Shown here piece after piece: positions 1 through 43,834 of a stretch of DNA of 64,000 nucleotides (its first letter is position 1; each line of letters begins with the position of its first letter). Location: positions 24,211 to 88,210 of the forward strand of contig SXPJ01000048.1 of the NCBI GenBank assembly GCA_005776395.1. Reading direction: 5' to 3'. Source of the DNA: Bdellovibrionales bacterium (GTDB lineage Bacteria; Bdellovibrionota; FAC87; UBA2466). The notes beneath the pieces are model-generated. The model searched no databases. It worked only from the letters and a program-made list of their open reading frames with translations, and had not been told where the DNA came from. The position numbers and the translations under genes are program-made.

Positions 1-309
1 CTTCAAGTAGGGACTAAAACAGTGCCCCATCACTAAGGTGAGCCCCGCCCCAGTTAAAAGCCAAGGGGTAGTTGCAGGATAAAACCTCGTCAACGCCCAA
101 AGGGGTAGATAGCCTTTAATGAAATCAAGGACAAAAACCAAGAATCCAGCATACCAACCAAAGACTCGGGTGACATTAGTAGCACCTATGTTGCCACTCC
201 CCATCTCACGAACATCGAGTCCGAACTTGCGCTTGGTAATAGCCACTCCCGCAGGAAAACCGCCAAGTAAATAACAGCCTAAAATAATGAGAAGATCTAA
301 GGGGTTCAC
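1..309 (-). CDS. plsY: Glycerol-3-phosphate acyltransferase PlsY. The gene runs off the window edge. Start is probably GTG at 309.
   Basis: Manual reverse translation gives ...LDLLIILGCYLLGGFPAGVAITKRKFGLDVREMGSGNIGATNVTRVFGW...LDFIKGYLPLW...GHCFSPYLK. The SGN(I/P)GATNV and D.xKG.LP motifs are diagnostic of PlsY. Not in the ORF track because it is truncated. Confidence 0.75.
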   Translation of the reverse strand, partial: MNPLDLLIILGCYLLGGFPAGVAITKRKFGLDVREMGSGNIGATNVTRVFGWYAGFLVFVLDFIKGYLPLWALTRFYPATTPWLLTGAGLTLVMGHCFSPYLK

Positions 310-415
310 AGTTTTCTTATACCGCCTGATTGTCTATTTGGCACTGAAAAGAAAAGAGGCAAGGTTTTCCTTTTCAATTCTTCTGAGTTATGGAAGGTTA
401 GAAACTTCTAAATCC

Positions 416-489
416 GGGCGGTTAGCTCAGCTGGATAGAGCACATGGCTTCGAACCATGGGGTCAGGGGTTCGACTCCCTTACCGCCCA
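416..489 (+). tRNA. tRNA-Arg (anticodon UCG)
   Basis: Cloverleaf GGGCGGT/ACCGCCC acceptor, D-arm GCTC-AGCTGGATA-GAGC, anticodon stem CATGG/CCATG with loop CUUCGAA (anticodon UCG), T-arm AGGGG-TTCGACT-CCCTT, discriminator A. CCA is not encoded. Confidence 0.88.
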
Positions 490-592
490 AATTCTTCTTA
501 AAGCCCATCCATTCGTGTTACAATTTCCTTACACATATAATTTTAAACAAGAATTGGACCCGCAAAAATCAAGATAGATTAGGTGGCAGCGA

Positions 593-1816
593 ATGAATTT
601 TAAAATATGTAGTCTATGGATTTGTTTTCTTATCTCAATTACTTTTTTTAAACCTCTATTAGGTGCTGAAGATTCTTGGGATTATGGAAAAAAATGTGCA
701 GAGGAGTTAGGTGTAGAACTCCCTGCTATCGATTGTAACCAAGGGGCTACCGTGCCCGTCACCGGAGCAGCAAATGATAAGTGCGATCGCCCCTCATTTG
801 GTGTTGCACACTGTTACACAGGAAGCAAAGTTCTCCAACTTACAGCTCAATTTAAACGGACCCCCAACGGTCCCCAAGAAAAAGTGGTGACGACTGTTCA
901 ATGTAGAAAAGGCAAGGGAGATGGAGACTATGAATTAGCGGTGATACAGTACAATGAAACTAATAATAAATCGTGTTGGTGGTTTCCTGGCTACAGAACG
1001 ACTCTTCCCAAACCCTATGATGCCAATATCGAAAGACAAGGGGGCAATGCCCTAACAACATTTCAAAAAAATTCAAGGGCAAGATGGGGAAACTCCTTGC
1101 AAACCCAAGACTGTACGGGCTGTCATACGAATGGTGTTTATATCAGGTCCCCTTGGATCATGCAGATTGATGGATCGGAAGCGGGAAGTTTTGTTCGCAA
1201 TGAAAGAACCGGAGCATACGAACCGGGGGGAAGGATCAGATTTCCTTCAACTATCAATAGACGAGGATATTCCTGCGCCGTAGAACCGGGACAGACCTAC
1301 CCGGAACTTGTGAAGATCAACAGTGCCGCCTTTGACAGCTATAAGTATAATGCAACAAATCCCAGGCCTCCAAATACAGCGCCCTCCGATACCTGTACCA
1401 AATGCCATTTCATGGGCTTTGGAGGATCGGTTTGTAGCATGAGTCGTGTAGGCCTCGGGGAACATGTGACAAATAGCACTTTGAAATACCCTGATAATCG
1501 ATGGATGCCTCCGATAAGTGACTGGCCGAGTGAATTAATCCCCAAGGACAACGACACCCAAGAGAAAAAAGACCAGCTAGAAAAAAAGTTTCTTGAATAT
1601 TATAAGCCCGCTATTGACGCTGTCTTATACTGTTGCGATTCTGCGAACCAAGGACGAAAAGTTAATGTGAGGGGTGAACCTGTCGACATTTGCCAAGGGG
1701 GGGAAGTATTTAATGAAACAAGAACAAGAAACCCCAGTCGACCCTGTCCCGAGCCAGTGGGGCAAATAAGAAGGCCAATTAAAAATAGTACATCTACTGA
1801 AGAACCAACGCATTAA
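593..1816 (+). CDS. Cys-rich exported protein with two CXXCH motifs (possible c-type heme sites); unknown function
   Basis: N-terminal signal peptide (MNFKICSLWICFLISITFF...). Many Cys, including DCTGCHTNG and DTCTKCHFMG. The last ~40 codons are duplicated in inverted orientation at 3218..3345. Confidence 0.6.
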   Translation: MNFKICSLWICFLISITFFKPLLGAEDSWDYGKKCAEELGVELPAIDCNQGATVPVTGAANDKCDRPSFGVAHCYTGSKVLQLTAQFKRTPNGPQEKVVTTVQCRKGKGDGDYELAVIQYNETNNKSCWWFPGYRTTLPKPYDANIERQGGNALTTFQKNSRARWGNSLQTQDCTGCHTNGVYIRSPWIMQIDGSEAGSFVRNERTGAYEPGGRIRFPSTINRRGYSCAVEPGQTYPELVKINSAAFDSYKYNATNPRPPNTAPSDTCTKCHFMGFGGSVCSMSRVGLGEHVTNSTLKYPDNRWMPPISDWPSELIPKDNDTQEKKDQLEKKFLEYYKPAIDAVLYCCDSANQGRKVNVRGEPVDICQGGEVFNETRTRNPSRPCPEPVGQIRRPIKNSTSTEEPTH

Positions 1817-1820
1817 CAGG
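1691..1820. repeat. Left arm of a ~130-bp inverted repeat, partner at 3218..3345, ~96% identity
   Basis: The reverse complement of 1691..1820 aligns with 3218..3345 with 3 substitutions and a 2-nt indel. Confidence 0.85.
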
Positions 1821-2135
1821 AGAAATGACTGCGATTTCTCACGACTGCTCTTGAAAGGCTTATATTCGTTTTGTTTGTACTTACTCACCACAACTTGGCT
1901 TCAATTCGATAAAGCGAGAGCTTTCTTTGAGGCCCCTTCTCGAAAAGCAATTCTGACGATTACTCTTATAGCTATGCTTGTCATCTAACTTATATCAGGG
2001 GTCAGCAGCAGGATCCCACCTTGAATTAATTGATGAATGAATCAGAAAGTTTCTCACTTTGTGTGTACGACGTTTCTTGTAAAGTTTCGGATATCTTGAT
2101 AACTTCACACAAGTTCTCGTAAAAAAGGAGATTAC

Positions 2136-3122
2136 ATGTCTATTTACTGGCGCTTTTCGGGATTGTTTGTAGGAATTTTATGTGTAGCCATCGCTTTCCA
2201 AAGCATTGGAGCTATCGGAAGCGAAATCTATTATGAGGTCTTTAAGCCCGGTGATACCGTCACGGACCAATCCACTGACAGCTCGCACTCTTATCTAGTT
2301 GGCTATGAAGGGCAAGTTCCTGATACCGAATTTGCGGACAAAATCGCCAAGACGGCACTTGCTGCCCACGCAAGCCTTTACATGGTCTTTAACCAGTGCT
2401 TCTCGGGGGGATTTATCGATGAGCTTTCAAAGTTGGGAGGAACACAGTTCATTTTCACTGCCGCCCGTCATTCGGAAACAGCCAGTTATGGATCCCCAGC
2501 GCCCAGCGGTGTAGATCTAGACTCTACCGACACTTTTAATATCGCGCTCGCCGATGGCAACGTTCCAGCCTCGATCGTTGCAGCAGAATCGGTCGCACTA
2601 AATCCCTTTGGCCCTAATCCAAATGCCAAACGCATAGGTGAATCCATGGGAAGTGAGCATGCTCAATATTTAGCCATTGGCGGCGGTGACCAACTACGAC
2701 CTGCCAATTTTGCCGACAGAGGGATAGCGATCCTTTGGGCCGGCCATCCCGCGGAGCGCGATGGCAAACAAATGAGTTTGATGATCGACCGCCTTATCAG
2801 TATGGGATTTAACGCCAACAAGATCTGGCTATTTTATGGGGCAGGAACCATTGAAGCATCCCACCCGATCGCCAAAACCCATTTCGTAGGAAAAGCTCAG
2901 CCAATTAATCTTCAGGCGGCGCTACCGAAAAATCTATTTTCCGTATTTGAAAATTCTTTTAACGAGAAAAATTCGACGCCCCCTGAGTTTGTCTTCTTCT
3001 ATGTCGGGGATCACGGGGGACTTAACTTCAAGGAGGTTGCTAAAACCGGTTTCACTCCCGATCCACTCGTTGCGCCGAACTTTTCAATGAAGCCAGGAAT
3101 AAAAACTTATGGAAACAAGTAG
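2136..3122 (+). CDS. Exported/membrane-anchored hypothetical protein. Possible clan-CD-like Cys/His motifs (NQCFSGGF, GDHGG); speculative.
   Basis: Good RBS (AAGGAG) 8 nt upstream of the ATG. N-terminal hydrophobic segment. GC is higher than the flanks. Sits between the two IR arms. Confidence 0.55.
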   Translation: MSIYWRFSGLFVGILCVAIAFQSIGAIGSEIYYEVFKPGDTVTDQSTDSSHSYLVGYEGQVPDTEFADKIAKTALAAHASLYMVFNQCFSGGFIDELSKLGGTQFIFTAARHSETASYGSPAPSGVDLDSTDTFNIALADGNVPASIVAAESVALNPFGPNPNAKRIGESMGSEHAQYLAIGGGDQLRPANFADRGIAILWAGHPAERDGKQMSLMIDRLISMGFNANKIWLFYGAGTIEASHPIAKTHFVGKAQPINLQAALPKNLFSVFENSFNEKNSTPPEFVFFYVGDHGGLNFKEVAKTGFTPDPLVAPNFSMKPGIKTYGNK

Positions 3123-3217
3123 TTCGGTATTGCCACATACCAGAAAACGCTGAACTAAAACACAATACTCTGAATCTCCAAGTCCGTCGAATCGATAAAT
3201 ACAGTTCTCGATTACTA

Positions 3218-3345
3218 CCTGTTAATGCGTTGGCTCTTCAGTAGATGTGCTATTTTTAATTGGCCTTCTTATTTGCCCCACTGGCTCGGGACAGGGTCGA
3301 CTGGGGTTTCTTGTTCTGGTTTCATTAAATACTCCCCCCTTGGCA
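3218..3345 (-). pseudogene. Frameshifted 3'-terminal fragment of a paralog of the 593..1816 gene (right IR arm)
   Basis: Minus-strand translation reproduces ...VFNETRTRNPSRPCPEPVGQIRRPIKNSTSTEEPTH*, but a 2-nt deletion in the G-run breaks the frame upstream. Confidence 0.55.
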
Positions 3346-3393
3346 TTTGAGGTTGTTATAAAGGGGGGAATTTTAGGGTGCAAGGCTAGTTCT

Positions 3394-4572
3394 CTAGATT
3401 AGGGCTCCCAATATTTTCTCATAGCTTCCCACGTGGATTCGTTTATCGGAATAGTATTTCAAATAGTTCTTTTCCGTTACAAGCTGGAAGTTATGTTGGG
3501 TTTTCAACTGAGCTTGAAATTTAATCAGAGTGGGGCTCAACGTTCGCGAATTTGACTTGCACTCGACCAACATCCAAGGTTTTTTATCTCGAGTGATACA
3601 AAAATCCACCTCGGCTTTGTCCTTGGTCCGAAGAAAGTGTAAATCAAATTCCCCTTGGGCTGTATCCGTCCAGAAATGACAGGCTTTCAAAAGATGTAGA
3701 GCGGTTAGGTTCTCTAAGCGCTTAGGAATGGAACTAATCTGTAAGGAGTCAAATAAGTACAGTTTCCGTTCGGCCCTTACCATGCGATTTAACTTTCCAA
3801 CATAAGGACGAATCAAAAAACAGTGATAAAGCACTTCGAGAACCTGGATCCAATCACGAATGGTCGCATAGGCAACACCCACATCCTCTCTTAAGCTATT
3901 CATGGAAAGAAGTGAGCCCACCCGTTCTGGAAGCAGATCAACCAAGACTTTCACAGCCTGTATATCATCGACAGCTCGAAAATCTCTGACATCTTCTTGA
4001 ACAAGACGCTCTAACCGTAAACGACTCCATCGTGCTGCTTTGGAAACACTGGCCTGCATAAATGGTTCTGGAAAACCCGAATACTGCACAAGATCATCCC
4101 AGGAATAGGGGGCGGGACCTTTTAAGAAGGACTCGCATTCGTCGGGAGAGTGTGGGGTTGTCGTTTCTCCAACTGAAAAGGGGTGTAGACGATAAGGAAT
4201 ATACCTTCCCATTAAACTGTCCCCGCCCTTTCTATAAAAATCTAACCGTGCACTTCCGGTAACTAGAATATGTAAACTATTACCTCTCATGTCATAGAGC
4301 CCTTTTAGGCGTTGCTTCCACCGACGATCTTTATGAATTTCATCCAGAACGATAATCCCCTGCATTTCATTCCCAATTGCAATTTCTGGATCTTTAACCC
4401 ATTTTTTTCTGAATCCAGTGCTATCCCAATTGAAATACTGTTGGGGAACTTGAAGCAAACCTTTGGCAAGGGTGGATTTTCCCACCTGCCTGGGGCCTGA
4501 GATAAACGCCATTTTATTGGATTTAAGGGCGTCTTCAGTAATCAAATTTTGTAAATAACGTTGCCGCATCAT
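3394..4572 (-). CDS. AAA+ ATPase of the COG1373 / DUF4143 family (predicted ATP-binding protein)
   Basis: Walker A GPRQVGKST near the N-terminus. Overall architecture typical of AAA_14 + DUF4143 proteins. Confidence 0.8.
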   Translation of the reverse strand: MMRQRYLQNLITEDALKSNKMAFISGPRQVGKSTLAKGLLQVPQQYFNWDSTGFRKKWVKDPEIAIGNEMQGIIVLDEIHKDRRWKQRLKGLYDMRGNSLHILVTGSARLDFYRKGGDSLMGRYIPYRLHPFSVGETTTPHSPDECESFLKGPAPYSWDDLVQYSGFPEPFMQASVSKAARWSRLRLERLVQEDVRDFRAVDDIQAVKVLVDLLPERVGSLLSMNSLREDVGVAYATIRDWIQVLEVLYHCFLIRPYVGKLNRMVRAERKLYLFDSLQISSIPKRLENLTALHLLKACHFWTDTAQGEFDLHFLRTKDKAEVDFCITRDKKPWMLVECKSNSRTLSPTLIKFQAQLKTQHNFQLVTEKNYLKYYSDKRIHVGSYEKILGALI

Positions 4573-4689
4573 AGCCTCTCATATAACTGATAGATAGCCG
4601 CGTCCAGTTATCAGTTTAGTAAGAAGATGTTTGAAAGACAAGGTAATTGAAAGAACCCCTTTTCGTGAACCTGTGGTCTTCTGTTTGGA

Positions 4690-5040
4690 TATTGTAAGAA
4701 ATGGTCGGGGTGGCCCTACAGTGGTTGAACCAATGGTCGTGGTGCGAGAGCACACCCGGCGATGTGGGTGAAATCATCATGAGTTGGGCTGGCTACCAGG
4801 CTTTGGTGAACCGATTGGGAGGATAACGTAATTTCAGGTCACGCGGATCATTTTACGGTGCCAGGCTGGACGGGCCCCGGCCACCTTTAACTCTTCCTGG
4901 TTGGATGTGAGTATTTAAACCTTTTGCGGTACCTGGACCGCCGTTCCGAGCAGTTGGTGTGTCGCTAATTCCTCGTGTGTCGCATTCATTTTTCGCAAGT
5001 TCTCTACTCCCTCCCTCTGCCGGGTCCTTTTTTTTGCTCT
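4690..5040. other. GC-rich (~55%) non-coding block; candidate structured RNA or decayed foreign DNA
   Basis: No ORF of 60 aa or more in any frame across 4573..4914 despite high GC. Local GNRA-capped hairpins (GTGC-GAGA-GCAC; CACCC..GGGTG). Ends in a T8 run at 5031..5038. Confidence 0.3.
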
Positions 5041-5154
5041 CAATTTTGACAAGATTTTCAACCTACCCGATATCTGTACGAACCCGTTTACTATACCGAT
5101 ATCATTCATCATTCGGTAAAACCCTTCAAATCAAACTCTCCCCAAATCGCCGAA

Positions 5155-5406
5155 ATGTACTTAAAAGATGGCCTTTCCGCGTCCCAGATCTCCGACAGAC
5201 TTGGAATTTCAAAGACGGCGGTTTTGGGGCGATTGCACGCTCTCGGCATACGAAAACTGACTTCGAGCAGTGAGAGGATAACCACCCCGAAGAACTATCG
5301 CGCATCGGTTGCGCCCTACGGGTATCGCAACGTTGATGGTCAGTTACTAGCGAACCGGAAGGAGGTTCGCATATGCAGGGTAGTGGCTCCAACGATAAAG
5401 GCGTAG
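5155..5406 (+). CDS. GcrA-like N-terminal HTH domain protein fragment (tentative)
   Basis: GLSASQISDRLGISKTAVLGRLHALGI resembles the GcrA DNA-binding N-domain (GLSASQIA..LG.SRNAVIGKVHRLGL). The C-terminal part is unlike GcrA. Embedded in GC-rich DNA where overlapping ORFs occur on both strands. Confidence 0.3.
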   Translation: MYLKDGLSASQISDRLGISKTAVLGRLHALGIRKLTSSSERITTPKNYRASVAPYGYRNVDGQLLANRKEVRICRVVAPTIKA

Positions 5407-5533
5407 GGAGAAAACATCCATGAAGAATCGGAATCAGGCACAATAAGGGAAACTGACCCAAGCACAAAGGCCATCATCCCAATGGCGGATAGCCGTGTAC
5501 CCCTCGTCATTTCCTTATGTTCATCGTTCCACA

Positions 5534-5857
5534 TTATGATTTCATCTCGTAAAGGTTGCCCCCACAATATCGACAGAATTTAATTCGCAACGATCCTCCA
5601 AGATAGAACCGACAAGTGGGGCACTTCCAAATCCCGCGGAATAGGATTTGCTGAAGGAGAAAACCCAGCCCAATCAACAAGAGGAAAATCGGAGCTCTTA
5701 ACGCAATTTCAAACAACACATATAGATTCTTGTTGTTTGCCCATTTAATGATCGAAGATAGGCAACTTTGCTCAACGTAAACCAGAGCAAAGCCCGTTAA
5801 GAGACCGAGACCAAGGTTCGCAAAGTAGAGTCGTTTTCTTATGACATCAGGAGACAT
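5534..5857 (-). CDS. Small membrane protein with C-terminal zinc-ribbon (CPTC...CRYC)
   Basis: ATG start, two hydrophobic segments, CxxC-x13-CxxC at the C-terminus. Confidence 0.4.
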   Translation of the reverse strand: MSPDVIRKRLYFANLGLGLLTGFALVYVEQSCLSSIIKWANNKNLYVLFEIALRAPIFLLLIGLGFLLQQILFRGIWKCPTCRFYLGGSLRIKFCRYCGGNLYEMKS

Positions 5858-5863
5858 TTAGAT

Positions 5864-6139
5864 CTATTCGGATTCGGGAGAATTCCACCCATCAATAAAG
5901 GCTTTGATGCTGATGTCTTCATCCACTTCTGGCCAATGGATTCCGTACCCATAGGGATCGATCTCGAATTTCTTAAGTTGCGCAGCCGAAGCATTGGATA
6001 AACGCTCCGACCAGGCGATTGGAATTGACACCTCTCGGCCGTCATCAAGAACGGCGGTAATAATGTCTTTACCGATTTTTAGATCCTTTATAGCCGGGTA
6101 GATTCTTTCCGGTTTATTTTTTTTTGCTAAAGAACTCAT
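5864..6139 (-). CDS. DUF2442 family protein
   Basis: ...ITAVLDDGREVSIPIAWSERL...IHWPEVDEDISIKAFIDGW is typical of DUF2442. ATG at 6139 preferred over the upstream TTG at 6232. Confidence 0.6.
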   Translation of the reverse strand: MSSLAKKNKPERIYPAIKDLKIGKDIITAVLDDGREVSIPIAWSERLSNASAAQLKKFEIDPYGYGIHWPEVDEDISIKAFIDGWNSPESE

Positions 6140-6356
6140 TCCATTCCTCCACAAATTTTTCTTTCTTGTTTCTGATGATTCCCAGAATATCTCTCTGTTC
6201 CCGAGGAGAGTAACCACGTACGTCTGCGACAATGACTTCAGGCAGCCAGACTTTCATGATGCCGCCTTTTCCTCTCACATGAACGTGACAAGGTTCATTT
6301 CCTTCGTTGCTAAAAAAACGAAACTGGTATCCTTTCTCAGTGTGTATCGTTGGCAC
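6114..6356 (-). CDS. DUF4160 family protein
   Basis: MPTIHTEKGYQFRFFSNEGNEPCHVHV matches the DUF4160 N-terminal signature (..F.FysnE..ePpHvHv). GTG start. Overlaps the DUF2442 gene by 26 nt. Confidence 0.65.
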   Translation of the reverse strand: MPTIHTEKGYQFRFFSNEGNEPCHVHVRGKGGIMKVWLPEVIVADVRGYSPREQRDILGIIRNKKEKFVEEWNEFFSKKK

Positions 6357-6469
6357 TTAAGCTCCGCTTGAATCCAAAAGCCTTTGGTTCGAATCCGTTC
6401 AAGATGTCAGGCCAGAAATCTTCCCATCATTTCGGGAACATGTGGTCGCCAAAATTCAAAAAATTTCAA

Positions 6470-6543
6470 TCGGGGTGGCGAGATTTGAACTCACTACCCT
6501 CTGCTCCCAAAGCAGATGCGCTAGCCAACTGCGCTACACCCCG
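6470..6543 (-). tRNA. tRNA-Pro (anticodon UGG)
   Basis: Minus-strand cloverleaf CGGGGTG/CACCCCG acceptor, D-arm GCGC-AGTTGGCTA-GCGC, anticodon stem TCTGC/GCAGA with loop UUUGGGA (anticodon UGG), T-arm GTGAG-TTCAAAT-CTCGC, discriminator A. Confidence 0.88.
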
Positions 6544-6953
6544 ATAAAGATTACTTCAGTTGCTTTGGTAACTTAGATTACCTCCTTTCTTTTGTCCACA
6601 TCTTCCATTGGGCTTCATGGAAGATTCGTGAAAGATTTTGATTTTTAGCAAGATTTCCACGCTTGAGATGAGGTGTATTAAGTTAAAACCCACATAGCAC
6701 TATCTTTCGATACTCCATGCGACCATCAACACTTGATAGATGATTTGCCTTTTGAGGGAATTACTTTGTTGCTAGATAGGATGTTCAGATTTGGAATAGA
6801 TTTTCATTTAGAATGCGGCGAGCAAGTATCACCATGAGATAATATGCAAAATTTCCATGATGGGAGCCAGGCAATTTCCAAAGAATGAGTCCACCGGAAA
6901 TACAGGCGGTAACGAGGGTTCGGTGGCAATCTGGATGTGGGCCATAAATAACC

Positions 6954-7220
6954 TTGAAACCAGCATTAAGCTCGCAAGAGATAATTCGGGAAAAATTAAC
7001 GCCCGAAAGAGCCTATCATCTCGACATGAATCAATCTTACATATTCACCTACTATGACAGTGAAATCACCGCCGATGTAACCATGCACCTTGGGACTGAT
7101 TTAGGATGCTTAAGGCGGGACAGGTTAGCCAATCATTCGTTAATGATTTACCGTTTTAATGCCAGTGGGAGCTGGGGAGTGTTCTGTGTTTGCGGACGAA
7201 TCGTTTGGGATTTTCATTAG
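6954..7220 (+). CDS. Hypothetical small protein (weak)
   Basis: 88-aa ORF with no recognisable motif, followed by a hairpin terminator. Confidence 0.25.
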   Translation: MKPALSSQEIIREKLTPERAYHLDMNQSYIFTYYDSEITADVTMHLGTDLGCLRRDRLANHSLMIYRFNASGSWGVFCVCGRIVWDFH

Positions 7221-7235
7221 TAGGTCAAAAAGAAA

Positions 7236-7275
7236 AAGCCGACCAGATTTTCATCGTCGGCTTTCCCTAAATTAT
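7236..7275. terminator. Rho-independent terminator-like hairpin
   Basis: GCCGAC-CAGATTTTCATC-GTCGGC stem-loop followed by a T-rich tract. Confidence 0.45.
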
Positions 7276-7384
7276 TTTAATAGCGTTATCTTAGTTGTAT
7301 TCGCAGGATAATTCTAATGAAGAACCGCCAGAACTCTTTTGAGTAGAACTGGCGATTCTTGCTAACTGAGTTCCGTAACCGGAA

Positions 7385-7633
7385 TTAGTTGATTGAACAG
7401 ATTCGGACCAATGAGTGTGAAGCAATGTCATAGCTGTGCGAGCACTCAATGCGACTGGCGCGAACAGTGAAGGTTCCGCTGTTCAGCTCTTCGATTTTGA
7501 CCCCTGCTTTTTTAAGAGCTGAGTAGAGGTTGAGTGCTGGGGTCACAGCAGGCGACAAATGCTTTTTTGATACGTTATCAGTGAGCGTTCCTTGTGCCCA
7601 TATAAATCCATGTGGGGTATATTCCATTCTCAC
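7385..7633 (-). CDS. Hypothetical protein; possibly the remnant of a larger exported protein whose signal peptide has no start codon
   Basis: The upstream in-frame sequence encodes a signal-peptide-like ...KSVFLSLFFFSLIAQASDGLKVKGEKAKAV... with no ATG/GTG/TTG before the preceding stop. Confidence 0.3.
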   Translation of the reverse strand: MRMEYTPHGFIWAQGTLTDNVSKKHLSPAVTPALNLYSALKKAGVKIEELNSGTFTVRASRIECSHSYDIASHSLVRICSIN

Positions 7634-8029
7634 ATCAGAAACATCCCAAGAAGCGCTTTCAATGGCTTCTAGCGTAACAGCTCCAACGCTCTGTAGGGCA
7701 TCGATAACAGCTTTTGCCTTCTCACCCTTAACCTTAAGGCCATCGCTAGCCTGGGCTATGAGTGAAAAAAAGAATAAAGATAAGAAAACACTTTTTATGG
7801 GGACCTCTTTTTGGGTGGACTATTCTACAGGTAAACAAAAAACCACTCTTCTAATTCGAGTAGGACCAAACCACATTCCGAGGAATTTAACGCGTAACGT
7901 ATAAAATATCCAGGAATATAACTTCGTGAAAAATTCATGATTAAAAAACTTCATCTTAAAGAGTCGCAATTGGCAATGAACAGAGTAAAAAGAGCCTTAA
8001 TAAAAACTGTCCAAACCTAAAAAAGTCGC

Positions 8030-43072: not shown

Positions 43073-43834
43073 CTACTCACATACCCTACCACCTGCGATT
43101 GCAGTAACCATTCTCATCACACCGGCGTTATGGCGCATTGTTCTAACTGTATGGCAACCATTCATAATGGCAGGTATTTGGCATTCCAAAGGGAAATTTA
43201 GAACGGGGTCCATTGATATCAAGCCTATCCTGAACATCGTGCTCGTCGCCTCATTAGAATCTCGAATCGCTTCTTGAGCTTCTTGACCCCCTTGAGTTAA
43301 TAGACCCCTAAAGCCGTTCTGCAATCCGGCATTTACAATCCTCGTTATTCCACCTACCGCTCTTTCGCGGGGATTCAGAAAAGATTTCTTGGCCCCACCT
43401 AAACTCGTGGAAAAACTCAAGTTCATACTGCCCACAGCCGGAACAGTCCCGCCCCCGAGAGAAACCCCCAACTTAGAAGAATCGCAACCTGTCAAAATAT
43501 CGCCAATTTTTTTGAACACCTGCGAGTAGACTGTGGCGTGCGCCTTTGCCACAGGCGTTGCATTGATATCATTCTTAATCGTATCAAGTCTTCTTACGAG
43601 AGTATTAATCAATGCTCTGGAATCGACCGGCTGTGGAGCGAGAGCGTTGACTGGCATCTGAACCCTGGCGACCTCTCTTATCGTATGGAGGGCTAAATTA
43701 GCTGTAACGTTTGCCCCCTCAAAAAGTGACCTGGTCAGATCAAAAAGGGATTGGACGGCGGCAACCTGCCCTGGCTGACGATTGCCTCCCAGGACATCCT
43801 GTACGACATTCCTAATGAAGTTGATTCTATCCAC
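43073..43834 (-). CDS. Hypothetical protein, GC-rich (~50%), no signal peptide, no recognisable domain
   Basis: 253-aa ORF, compositionally distinct from its neighbours. Confidence 0.5.
   Translation of the reverse strand: MDRINFIRNVVQDVLGGNRQPGQVAAVQSLFDLTRSLFEGANVTANLALHTIREVARVQMPVNALAPQPVDSRALINTLVRRLDTIKNDINATPVAKAHATVYSQVFKKIGDILTGCDSSKLGVSLGGGTVPAVGSMNLSFSTSLGGAKKSFLNPRERAVGGITRIVNAGLQNGFRGLLTQGGQEAQEAIRDSNEATSTMFRIGLISMDPVLNFPLECQIPAIMNGCHTVRTMRHNAGVMRMVTAIAGGRVCE

Follow-up and report, generated by a model that had tools for sequence, protein, structure and literature searches.

The closest described counterparts of the locus reported here are tRNA-associated islands and integrative mobilizable elements, which lie at the 3' ends of tRNA genes, have an atypical composition, carry accessory cargo, differ between related genomes, and are marked by an integrase and by tRNA-derived direct repeats on both sides; integrase-less islets mobilised in trans belong with them. 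Two described gene systems also bear on its cargo. DhiTA of Dickeya dadantii is a validated type II toxin-antitoxin consisting of a DUF4160 toxin and a DUF2442 antitoxin (PMC8198452). DUF4143 has been classed as a PD-(D/E)XK nuclease family (PMC3424549), and PDC-S01 is a very common, unvalidated defence candidate, most PDCs still awaiting validation (PMC12988326). Here we describe a window of 64,000 nucleotides (nt), which is part of a 197.5-kb contig (ENA ERZ27257034 k141_81355) of a Bdellovibrionota metagenome genome, and in it an interval of ~6 kb (490-6468) that is bounded by a tRNA-Arg gene and a tRNA-Pro gene. An earlier note on this DNA had taken the interval for the decayed remains of one or two integrative elements. 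In our view it is probably an accessory islet of mosaic make-up, which has built up from at least three pieces (A, 490-3340; B, 3341-5063; and C, about 5064-6472) and is enclosed by two tRNA genes whose 3' ends converge on it.

Like the described islands, the islet lies at tRNA 3' ends and has a foreign composition and accessory cargo. It is also absent from the distant relatives sampled here, and a single 704-bp contig from a related element shows a junction of joined ends that would fall at a tRNA terminus. Unlike them, it has neither an integrase nor clear flanking tRNA-derived repeats, and piece C measures just ~1.4 kb. In the model that we favour, piece C would be a small integrase-less integrative module, with a decayed gene for a helix-turn-helix (HTH) protein carrying half of a recombinase domain (hereafter HTH-Rec) at one end and, at the other end, an operon of three genes (for a DhiT-like toxin, a DhiA-like antitoxin, and a zinc-ribbon membrane protein) and a short conserved segment that we call X. 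Site-specific recombination at the tRNA-Pro 3' end would have brought this module in; its recombinase was presumably supplied in trans or has since been lost, and the DhiTA-like pair would stabilise it. Piece B, with its PDC-S01-type gene and ~0.5 kb of dead sequence, would be older cargo or a former flank. Piece A comprises two lineage-restricted secreted-protein genes and would occupy a recombination-prone spot after tRNA-Arg, where the 3' end of the first gene would have undergone an inverted partial duplication of 130 bp. We observed the boundaries, the composition, the identities of the genes, the lack of conservation in relatives, the decay of the HTH-Rec gene, and the contig with joined ends; we infer the order of these events, the mobility in trans, and the functions of the genes in addiction and defence.

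The interval between tRNA-Arg and tRNA-Pro

ARAGORN and Rfam agree that the window contains exactly two tRNA genes. tRNA-Arg(TCG) lies at 416-489 on the forward strand (Rfam, 67.8 bits) and forms the left boundary of the islet, and tRNA-Pro(TGG) lies at 6469-6544 on the reverse strand (65 bits) and forms the right boundary. Their convergent arrangement ~6 kb apart, with both 3' ends facing the interval, had been noticed previously and is confirmed by both programs. The nearest named relatives of the Dus protein are those of Silvanigrella and Fluviispira (52-55% identity), and the host is therefore an uncultured freshwater Silvanigrellales-like bacterium (Bdellovibrionota/Oligoflexia). The closest species-level GTDB genome is the metagenome-assembled genome LLD_281, whose PlsY is just 58% identical, and freshwater-lake metagenomes hold closer relatives (73-83% protein identity).

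We analyzed the composition of the interval against the 64-70 kb of the contig, rather than against the whole genome. The GC content of the interval is 0.450, compared with 0.405 in the rest of the window and 0.401 in the 6.6 kb of its left flank, and this value is reached by just 3% of 6-kb windows, all of which overlap the interval. GC content at third codon positions (GC3) ranges from 0.385 to 0.607 in all seven open reading frames (ORFs) of the interval, compared with 0.350 +/- 0.037 for the core, and the codon-usage log-likelihood is below the core mean for every one of the seven. The strand-symmetric tetranucleotide distance of the interval is 0.239, compared with 0.124 +/- 0.013 for 103 other 6-kb windows (z = 8.6). 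When sub-blocks were scored separately, the tetranucleotide z was 4.3 for 490-3340, 2.1-2.3 for 3341-5060, and 3.9-4.0 for 5061-6472. Given that the DNA beyond tRNA-Pro (6545-8029, 1.5 kb) and the DUF2490 gene are compositionally typical (z about 0), the compositional right edge of the islet is tRNA-Pro. In other words, the interval stands out in GC content, GC3, codon usage and tetranucleotides alike, in agreement with the atypical composition noted earlier, and normal composition resumes right after tRNA-Pro. The sole other compositionally atypical ORF in the window is at 43073-43834 on the reverse strand (GC3 0.476, codon score -0.059); it encodes 253 amino acids (aa) and has no Pfam match.

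We also compared both flanks with those of related genomes. Seven related contigs keep the order HisKA-Trx-plsY-tRNA-Arg, but their similarity to the window does not extend past the final base of tRNA-Arg, a gene that is 100% identical in the relatives L085-L089. Past this point, contig L087 and LLD_281 share a gene for a 155-aa protein and a xylose-isomerase-like gene, an arrangement that is probably the ancestral state. L089 and L090 have an extra 5.3 kb after tRNA-Arg, and L085, L086 and L091 have other orphan genes for membrane or secreted proteins. Because the 5.3-kb insert of L089 lies between tRNA-Arg and the genes shared by L087 and LLD_281, the tRNA-Arg flank is variable across the clade. 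This insert (L089:2126-7466, against L087:7112-9238) itself consists of orphan genes for membrane or secreted proteins, with no integrase and no tRNA repeat. Past tRNA-Arg, the relatives contain no integrase and no gene of the islet. On the other side, the relatives keep Dus-CoA-transferase, in front of which stands either PCC-Vut_1-Dus2-EamA or a radical-SAM gene, and these Dus loci contain no tRNA-Pro, no DUF2490 gene, and no islet gene. The interval is thus neither conserved among these relatives nor core-like, the opposite of what would have refuted the earlier note.

The tRNA-Pro end of the islet

The HTH-Rec pseudogene of piece C occupies 5050-5480 on the forward strand; it encodes an HTH and the N-terminal half of PF07508, and an ORF at 5155-5406 remains of it. 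Queried with 5050-5403, an exhaustive HMMER search returned 442 relatives, of which the best is 72% identical. Full-length relatives are 125-160 aa long and family members overall 125-180 aa, and they consist of an HTH and the N-terminal half of PF07508 (profile positions 1-50 of 102), including its PYGY motif, with no catalytic domain. The gene in the window is demonstrably decayed: against P0145, the nearest copy that is intact (72% identity), it lacks ~45 C-terminal codons, lost through several deletions, and a DNA alignment with L127, the 704-bp contig of metagenome sample ERZ27280021 that holds the closest intact HTH-Rec gene, shows four deletions of 8-11 nt in it. HTH-Rec proteins share the N-terminal PF07508 part, including PYGY, with large serine recombinases (PF00239, PF07508, and zinc ribbon) and match the corresponding part of the phage integrases of PHROG 95. 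They differ from large serine recombinases in having no resolvase, zinc-ribbon or coiled-coil domain, and because the catalytic resolvase domain is absent they are predicted to bind DNA rather than to cut it. The fragment had been labelled as GcrA-like, which is wrong in substance: the Pfam GcrA match covers profile positions 14-67 of 155, the NCBIfam GcrA score is 22.4 bits against a cut-off of 280, and the fragment belongs to the family of HTH proteins with a serine-recombinase domain. When viral contigs were scanned with the family member P0148, the window's own fragment or the core of X, nothing emerged beyond a 23-aa HTH match.

Segment X (6395-6472) lies between the start codon of the dhiT-like gene and the 3' end of tRNA-Pro, and its core sequence is TCGGGAACATGTGGTCGC. 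It is in L127 that X and the HTH-Rec gene are found joined. Positions 30-81 of L127 match window positions 6421-6472 (84.6% identity over 52 nt, E 7.6e-11, blastn), and positions 90-393 match 5069-5372 (78% identity, E 6e-69), which is the 5' end of the HTH-Rec gene. In a three-way alignment, the matches to X and to the HTH-Rec start sit 8 nt apart, whereas they are 1.35 kb apart in the window. Moreover, the breakpoint in L127 corresponds to a point 2-3 nt within the tRNA-Pro 3' end. Most simply, this suggests a discrete, circularisable unit of ~1.4 kb (5064-6472), with its attachment site between X and the HTH gene. L127 would then be a copy that is circular, in tandem, or opened at another point. 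The module so delimited would contain the HTH-Rec pseudogene, the zinc-ribbon ORF, the DhiTA-like pair, and X.

Another contig, L126, offers a second view of the family beside a tRNA gene. In L126, an HTH-Rec member begins ~40 nt past tRNA-Ala(GGC), and the GC content drops there from 0.42 to about 0.3. The public gene call at this place (P0147, L126 2297-2860) starts inside tRNA-Ala(GGC) and reads into HTH-Rec, so that its N-terminal '...GSIPVVST' is translated T-arm sequence of the tRNA. The low GC content of about 0.3 lasts for the next 6 kb, which contain small orphan ORFs. Because this member begins so close to tRNA-Ala, we suggest that the HTH-Rec family tends to sit at the tRNA-side junctions of foreign DNA. 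Repeats of tRNA-Ala in L126, as well as tRNA repeats after tRNA-Arg in five relatives, were within shuffled controls.

Between the pseudogene and X, the reverse strand carries a string of three genes (5534-6356). The first of these (6114-6356) encodes a DUF4160 protein that covers the full Pfam profile (4.5e-16), and it is followed, with an overlap of 26 nt, by a gene for a DUF2442 protein (5864-6139; Pfam 3.1e-18), which is called in the public annotation. The third gene (5534-5857) starts 6 nt past the end of the DUF2442 gene and encodes a 107-aa membrane protein with a CxxC...CxxC zinc ribbon at its C-terminus and no family match. The first two genes show the architecture of DhiTA, with the same pair of Pfam families, the toxin gene first, and overlapping genes. 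They are very distant from it in sequence, however, the DUF4160 protein scoring 19.7 bits with NCBIfam toxin_DhiT against a cut-off of 100 and so staying outside the DhiT equivalog, and they are followed by the co-directional zinc-ribbon membrane gene. We therefore refer to them as a predicted DhiTA-like toxin-antitoxin, with a DhiT-like toxin and a DhiA-like antitoxin. The remaining ORFs of the islet had no informative match in PHROGs, PADLOC or NCBIfam.

Pieces B and A

The main gene of piece B (3394-4572, reverse strand) encodes an ATPase with the domains AAA_14 (Pfam, 5e-23) and DUF4143 (9e-22). It matches several PDC-S01 models of PADLOC strongly (2.2e-48, 1e-39, and 6e-28) and has the two-domain architecture of PDC-S01. 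No known defence system adjoins it. This predicted ATPase-nuclease is a candidate anti-phage gene. Next to it lies a non-coding block (4573-5049) that is free of ORFs and has a local GC content of up to 0.58. The possibility that the block encodes a structured RNA was rejected: 4573-5154 had no Rfam match even at E <= 10, and it folded no better than shuffled sequences on both strands (z +1.07 and +0.55). We also found no match to 4573-5540 in the plasmid collection, and searches of the short ORFs of 1851-1988, 4915-5467 and 6556-7969 against Pfam at E <= 0.1 returned nothing. The block probably represents either decayed DNA or what was once the flank of tRNA-Pro.

The first gene of piece A (593-1816, forward strand) encodes a 407-aa secreted, Cys-rich protein with a signal-peptide-like N-terminus and two CXXCH motifs (C174-H178 and C268-H272). 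The family is very rare: among 5.8 billion proteins just four belong to it, and 13 Cys and both CXXCH motifs are invariant in all four, which also keep the C-terminal tail. It has no match in Pfam, NCBIfam, PHROG or PADLOC. A PDB profile search gave a marginal match to the monohaem cytochrome ScyA (E 0.1), and the AlphaFold model was unusable (predicted local distance difference test, pLDDT, 37), the alignment being too shallow. Given that conserved CXXCH motifs and an export signal, the marks of a c-type cytochrome, are both present, the protein is possibly a dihaem c-type protein, which is a reasonable guess and no more.

The second gene (2136-3122, forward strand) lies between the arms of an inverted repeat and encodes an exported protein of 328 aa, whose family is small, with 20 members. 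The family has two invariant motifs, NQC(F/Y)SGG (C88) and GDHGG (H293), which resemble the legumain contexts in reversed order. Positions 128-190 of the Pfam profile Peptidase_C13 match residues 65-130, and positions 105-127 match residues 294-316 of a homologue, both below the Pfam threshold. The protein thus shares conserved His-Gly and Cys motifs with the clan CD peptidases (legumain, C13; caspases and metacaspases, C14), and its best structural matches are a caspase and legumain. It differs from them in that its Cys block (~88) precedes its His block (~293), the reverse of the usual order of His before Cys on a caspase-like fold, and in that its sequence matches stay under the Pfam thresholds. 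A natural circular permutation of the clan CD (caspase/legumain) fold, which would place the Cys block ahead of the His block, may account for this order.

The left arm of the inverted repeat (1691-1820, forward strand) consists of the last 39 codons and the stop codon of the Cys-rich gene, and is native, because the C-terminus of the Cys-rich protein is conserved in its homologues. The right arm (3218-3345, reverse strand) is an orphan copy of this 3' end, just downstream of the DUF4143 gene. The arms, of which the window contains only these two copies, match at 97% over 122 nt, and the match extends to 130 nt with a single 2-nt indel (96-97% identity overall), which lies at the outer edge of the right arm and shifts its frame. 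The arms differ by three substitutions, all of which are synonymous third-position changes in the frame of the Cys-rich gene. This suggests that the right arm belonged to a working paralogue until recently, or that gene conversion has occurred, n being 3. We also noted that contigs of three independent assemblies end at 1861, 1861 and 1874, that another begins at 2060, and that a fifth crosses this zone at 100% identity. The repeat boundary (1820) lies outside this break zone (1861-2060), which might stem from heterogeneity of the population or from a repeat located elsewhere in the genome.

The gene list of the earlier note (the Cys-rich CXXCH protein, the exported protein within the 130-bp inverted repeats, the DUF4143 ATPase, the non-coding block, and the DUF4160/DUF2442 pair) was essentially right. 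However, the tRNA-Arg-proximal half, with its two secreted-protein genes, has no mobile-element feature. Because homologues of the Cys-rich and exported proteins, ~70% identical, occur elsewhere in ordinary, unrelated contexts, this half may be the lineage's own DNA, moved here from another place, and not an element brought in from outside.

Alternative explanations, leads, and neighbouring features

A number of findings weigh against the mosaic islet with an integrated piece C. Searches of Pfam, PHROGs and NCBIfam found no integrase domain in any ORF or short ORF of the interval, which agrees with the earlier statement that no intact integrase is present and leaves the non-catalytic recombinase-domain fragment as the only trace. 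Partial direct or inverted repeats of tRNA-Arg and tRNA-Pro in the islet were within the range of shuffled controls, so the search for direct repeats of the tRNA 3' ends that had been proposed for this interval yielded nothing above chance. The only candidate core pairs 5051-5063 with 6458-6470, at the presumed ends of piece C, as a 13-nt repeat with 10/13 matches, which is not significant alone. The HTH-Rec member P0148 had no match in plasmid or phage collections. With its 704 bp, L127 fits a circular or tandem junction and an occupied site with X as the chromosomal flank alike. The sampled relatives are distant (73-83% protein identity), and absence of the islet genes there does not date the acquisition. 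Finally, the homologues of the secreted-protein genes (~70% identity) occur in metagenomes that hold the relatives, so that piece A could be vertically inherited and relocated. The interpretation of the interval as the decayed remains of one or two integrative elements therefore stands in part: the foreign composition, the differences among the relatives, and the L127 junction at tRNA-Pro support it, whereas the missing tRNA repeats and the tRNA-Arg half without mobile features do not.

One alternative is that the interval was never acquired horizontally and is a fast-evolving, rearrangement-prone part of the chromosome, which owes its composition to the type of its genes (secreted, Cys-rich, and small ORFs) and to dead DNA. 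Such a segment would need no integrase and no attachment repeats, it would agree with the ~70% homologues of the Cys-rich and exported proteins in the freshwater metagenomes that hold the relatives, and synteny is scrambled on both flanks in the relatives anyway. However, the shifts in tetranucleotides (z 8.6) and GC3 are found in all ORFs as well as in the non-coding part and give way to normal values past tRNA-Pro, the breakpoint of L127 falls at a tRNA 3' end, and the cargo (toxin-antitoxin, PDC-S01, and recombinase-domain gene) is typical of mobile DNA; we regard a native origin as quite improbable. There is next to no chance that the interval is a metagenome assembly chimera of unrelated organisms. 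Its composition does change at its edges and several other assemblies do break within 1861-2060, but contigs of three other assemblies of the same strain (ENA, Logan, and NCBI GCA_005801785.1) tile 1-1874, 1759-3279 and 2060-6514 at 99.96-100% identity, overlapping across 1-6514 and bridging both tRNA junctions. The interval is therefore not an assembly artefact, and these independent assemblies effectively refute the chimera. Three independent assemblies (contigs L114-116, L118 and L119) show both inner junctions of the inverted repeat in one orientation only, and an inversion polymorphism there was rejected on this ground. That the repeats bound an invertible, phase-variable cassette switching the expression of the exported protein is thus very improbable, even though long arms of 97% identity flank a single gene and its upstream region; no invertase gene is nearby, and the arms themselves are merely a native coding 3' end and an orphan with a frameshifting outer indel.

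The remaining alternative concerns X. If X were the native chromosomal flank of tRNA-Pro, then L127 would be an occupied attachment site (flank, core, and HTH gene) in a related genome, the tRNA-Pro junction in the window would at present be unoccupied, and an earlier visit would have left the HTH pseudogene as debris at a distance of 1.35 kb. L127 does show the junction of X with the HTH gene alone and nothing beyond it, and in L126 the HTH gene adjoins the chromosomal tRNA side of the junction, as this arrangement would have it. Nevertheless, it would take a coincidence to leave a decayed copy of the same family 1.35 kb from X, and 5061-6472 is among the most atypical blocks (z about 4), resembling cargo rather than native flank. 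We therefore judge this explanation unlikely, and retain the mosaic islet in which X belongs to piece C.

Because accessory DNA beside tRNA genes is commonplace, the islet itself matters little; it is real but ordinary, an example of a well-known kind, the decayed tRNA-associated accessory islet. It does provide three modest leads in a barely sampled lineage, namely a possible integrase-less mini-element whose mark is a DNA-binding protein resembling a truncated serine recombinase, a small group of exported proteins that are caspase/legumain-like and appear to be circularly permuted, and an extremely rare secreted double-CXXCH family. A bolder reading, which we advance tentatively and as a rather doubtful one, is the joint claim that piece C represents an undescribed class of very small (~1.4 kb) integrase-less elements that target tRNA 3' ends and, separately, that the 328-aa protein is a circular permutant. 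The hallmark of such a class would be the 125-160-aa protein with an HTH and the DNA-binding half of a recombinase domain, encoded within ~40 nt of the junction, a position that it occupies in L127, in L126 (beside tRNA-Ala), and in the window itself. The role of this protein could be to bring in, in trans, the large serine recombinase of a helper, in the manner of a satellite or hitchhiker, and the DhiTA-like pair could retain the element.

Two further observations concern the surroundings of the islet. Past tRNA-Pro, the reverse strand at 7388-7798 has a stop-free stretch of 137 codons with a signal-peptide-like N-terminus and a GAGG ribosome-binding site 5 nt upstream of an ATA in place of ATG, which may reflect the loss of a start codon or a rare start. 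No gene is called there and it has no Pfam match, and the rest of 6545-7384 contains no recognisable gene. On the same contig, ~6.5-8 kb to the left of the window start (L113:1427-2910), a Fic/DUF4172 gene lies beside an XRE-type HTH gene, and this pair is another accessory-looking module near the islet, outside the window.

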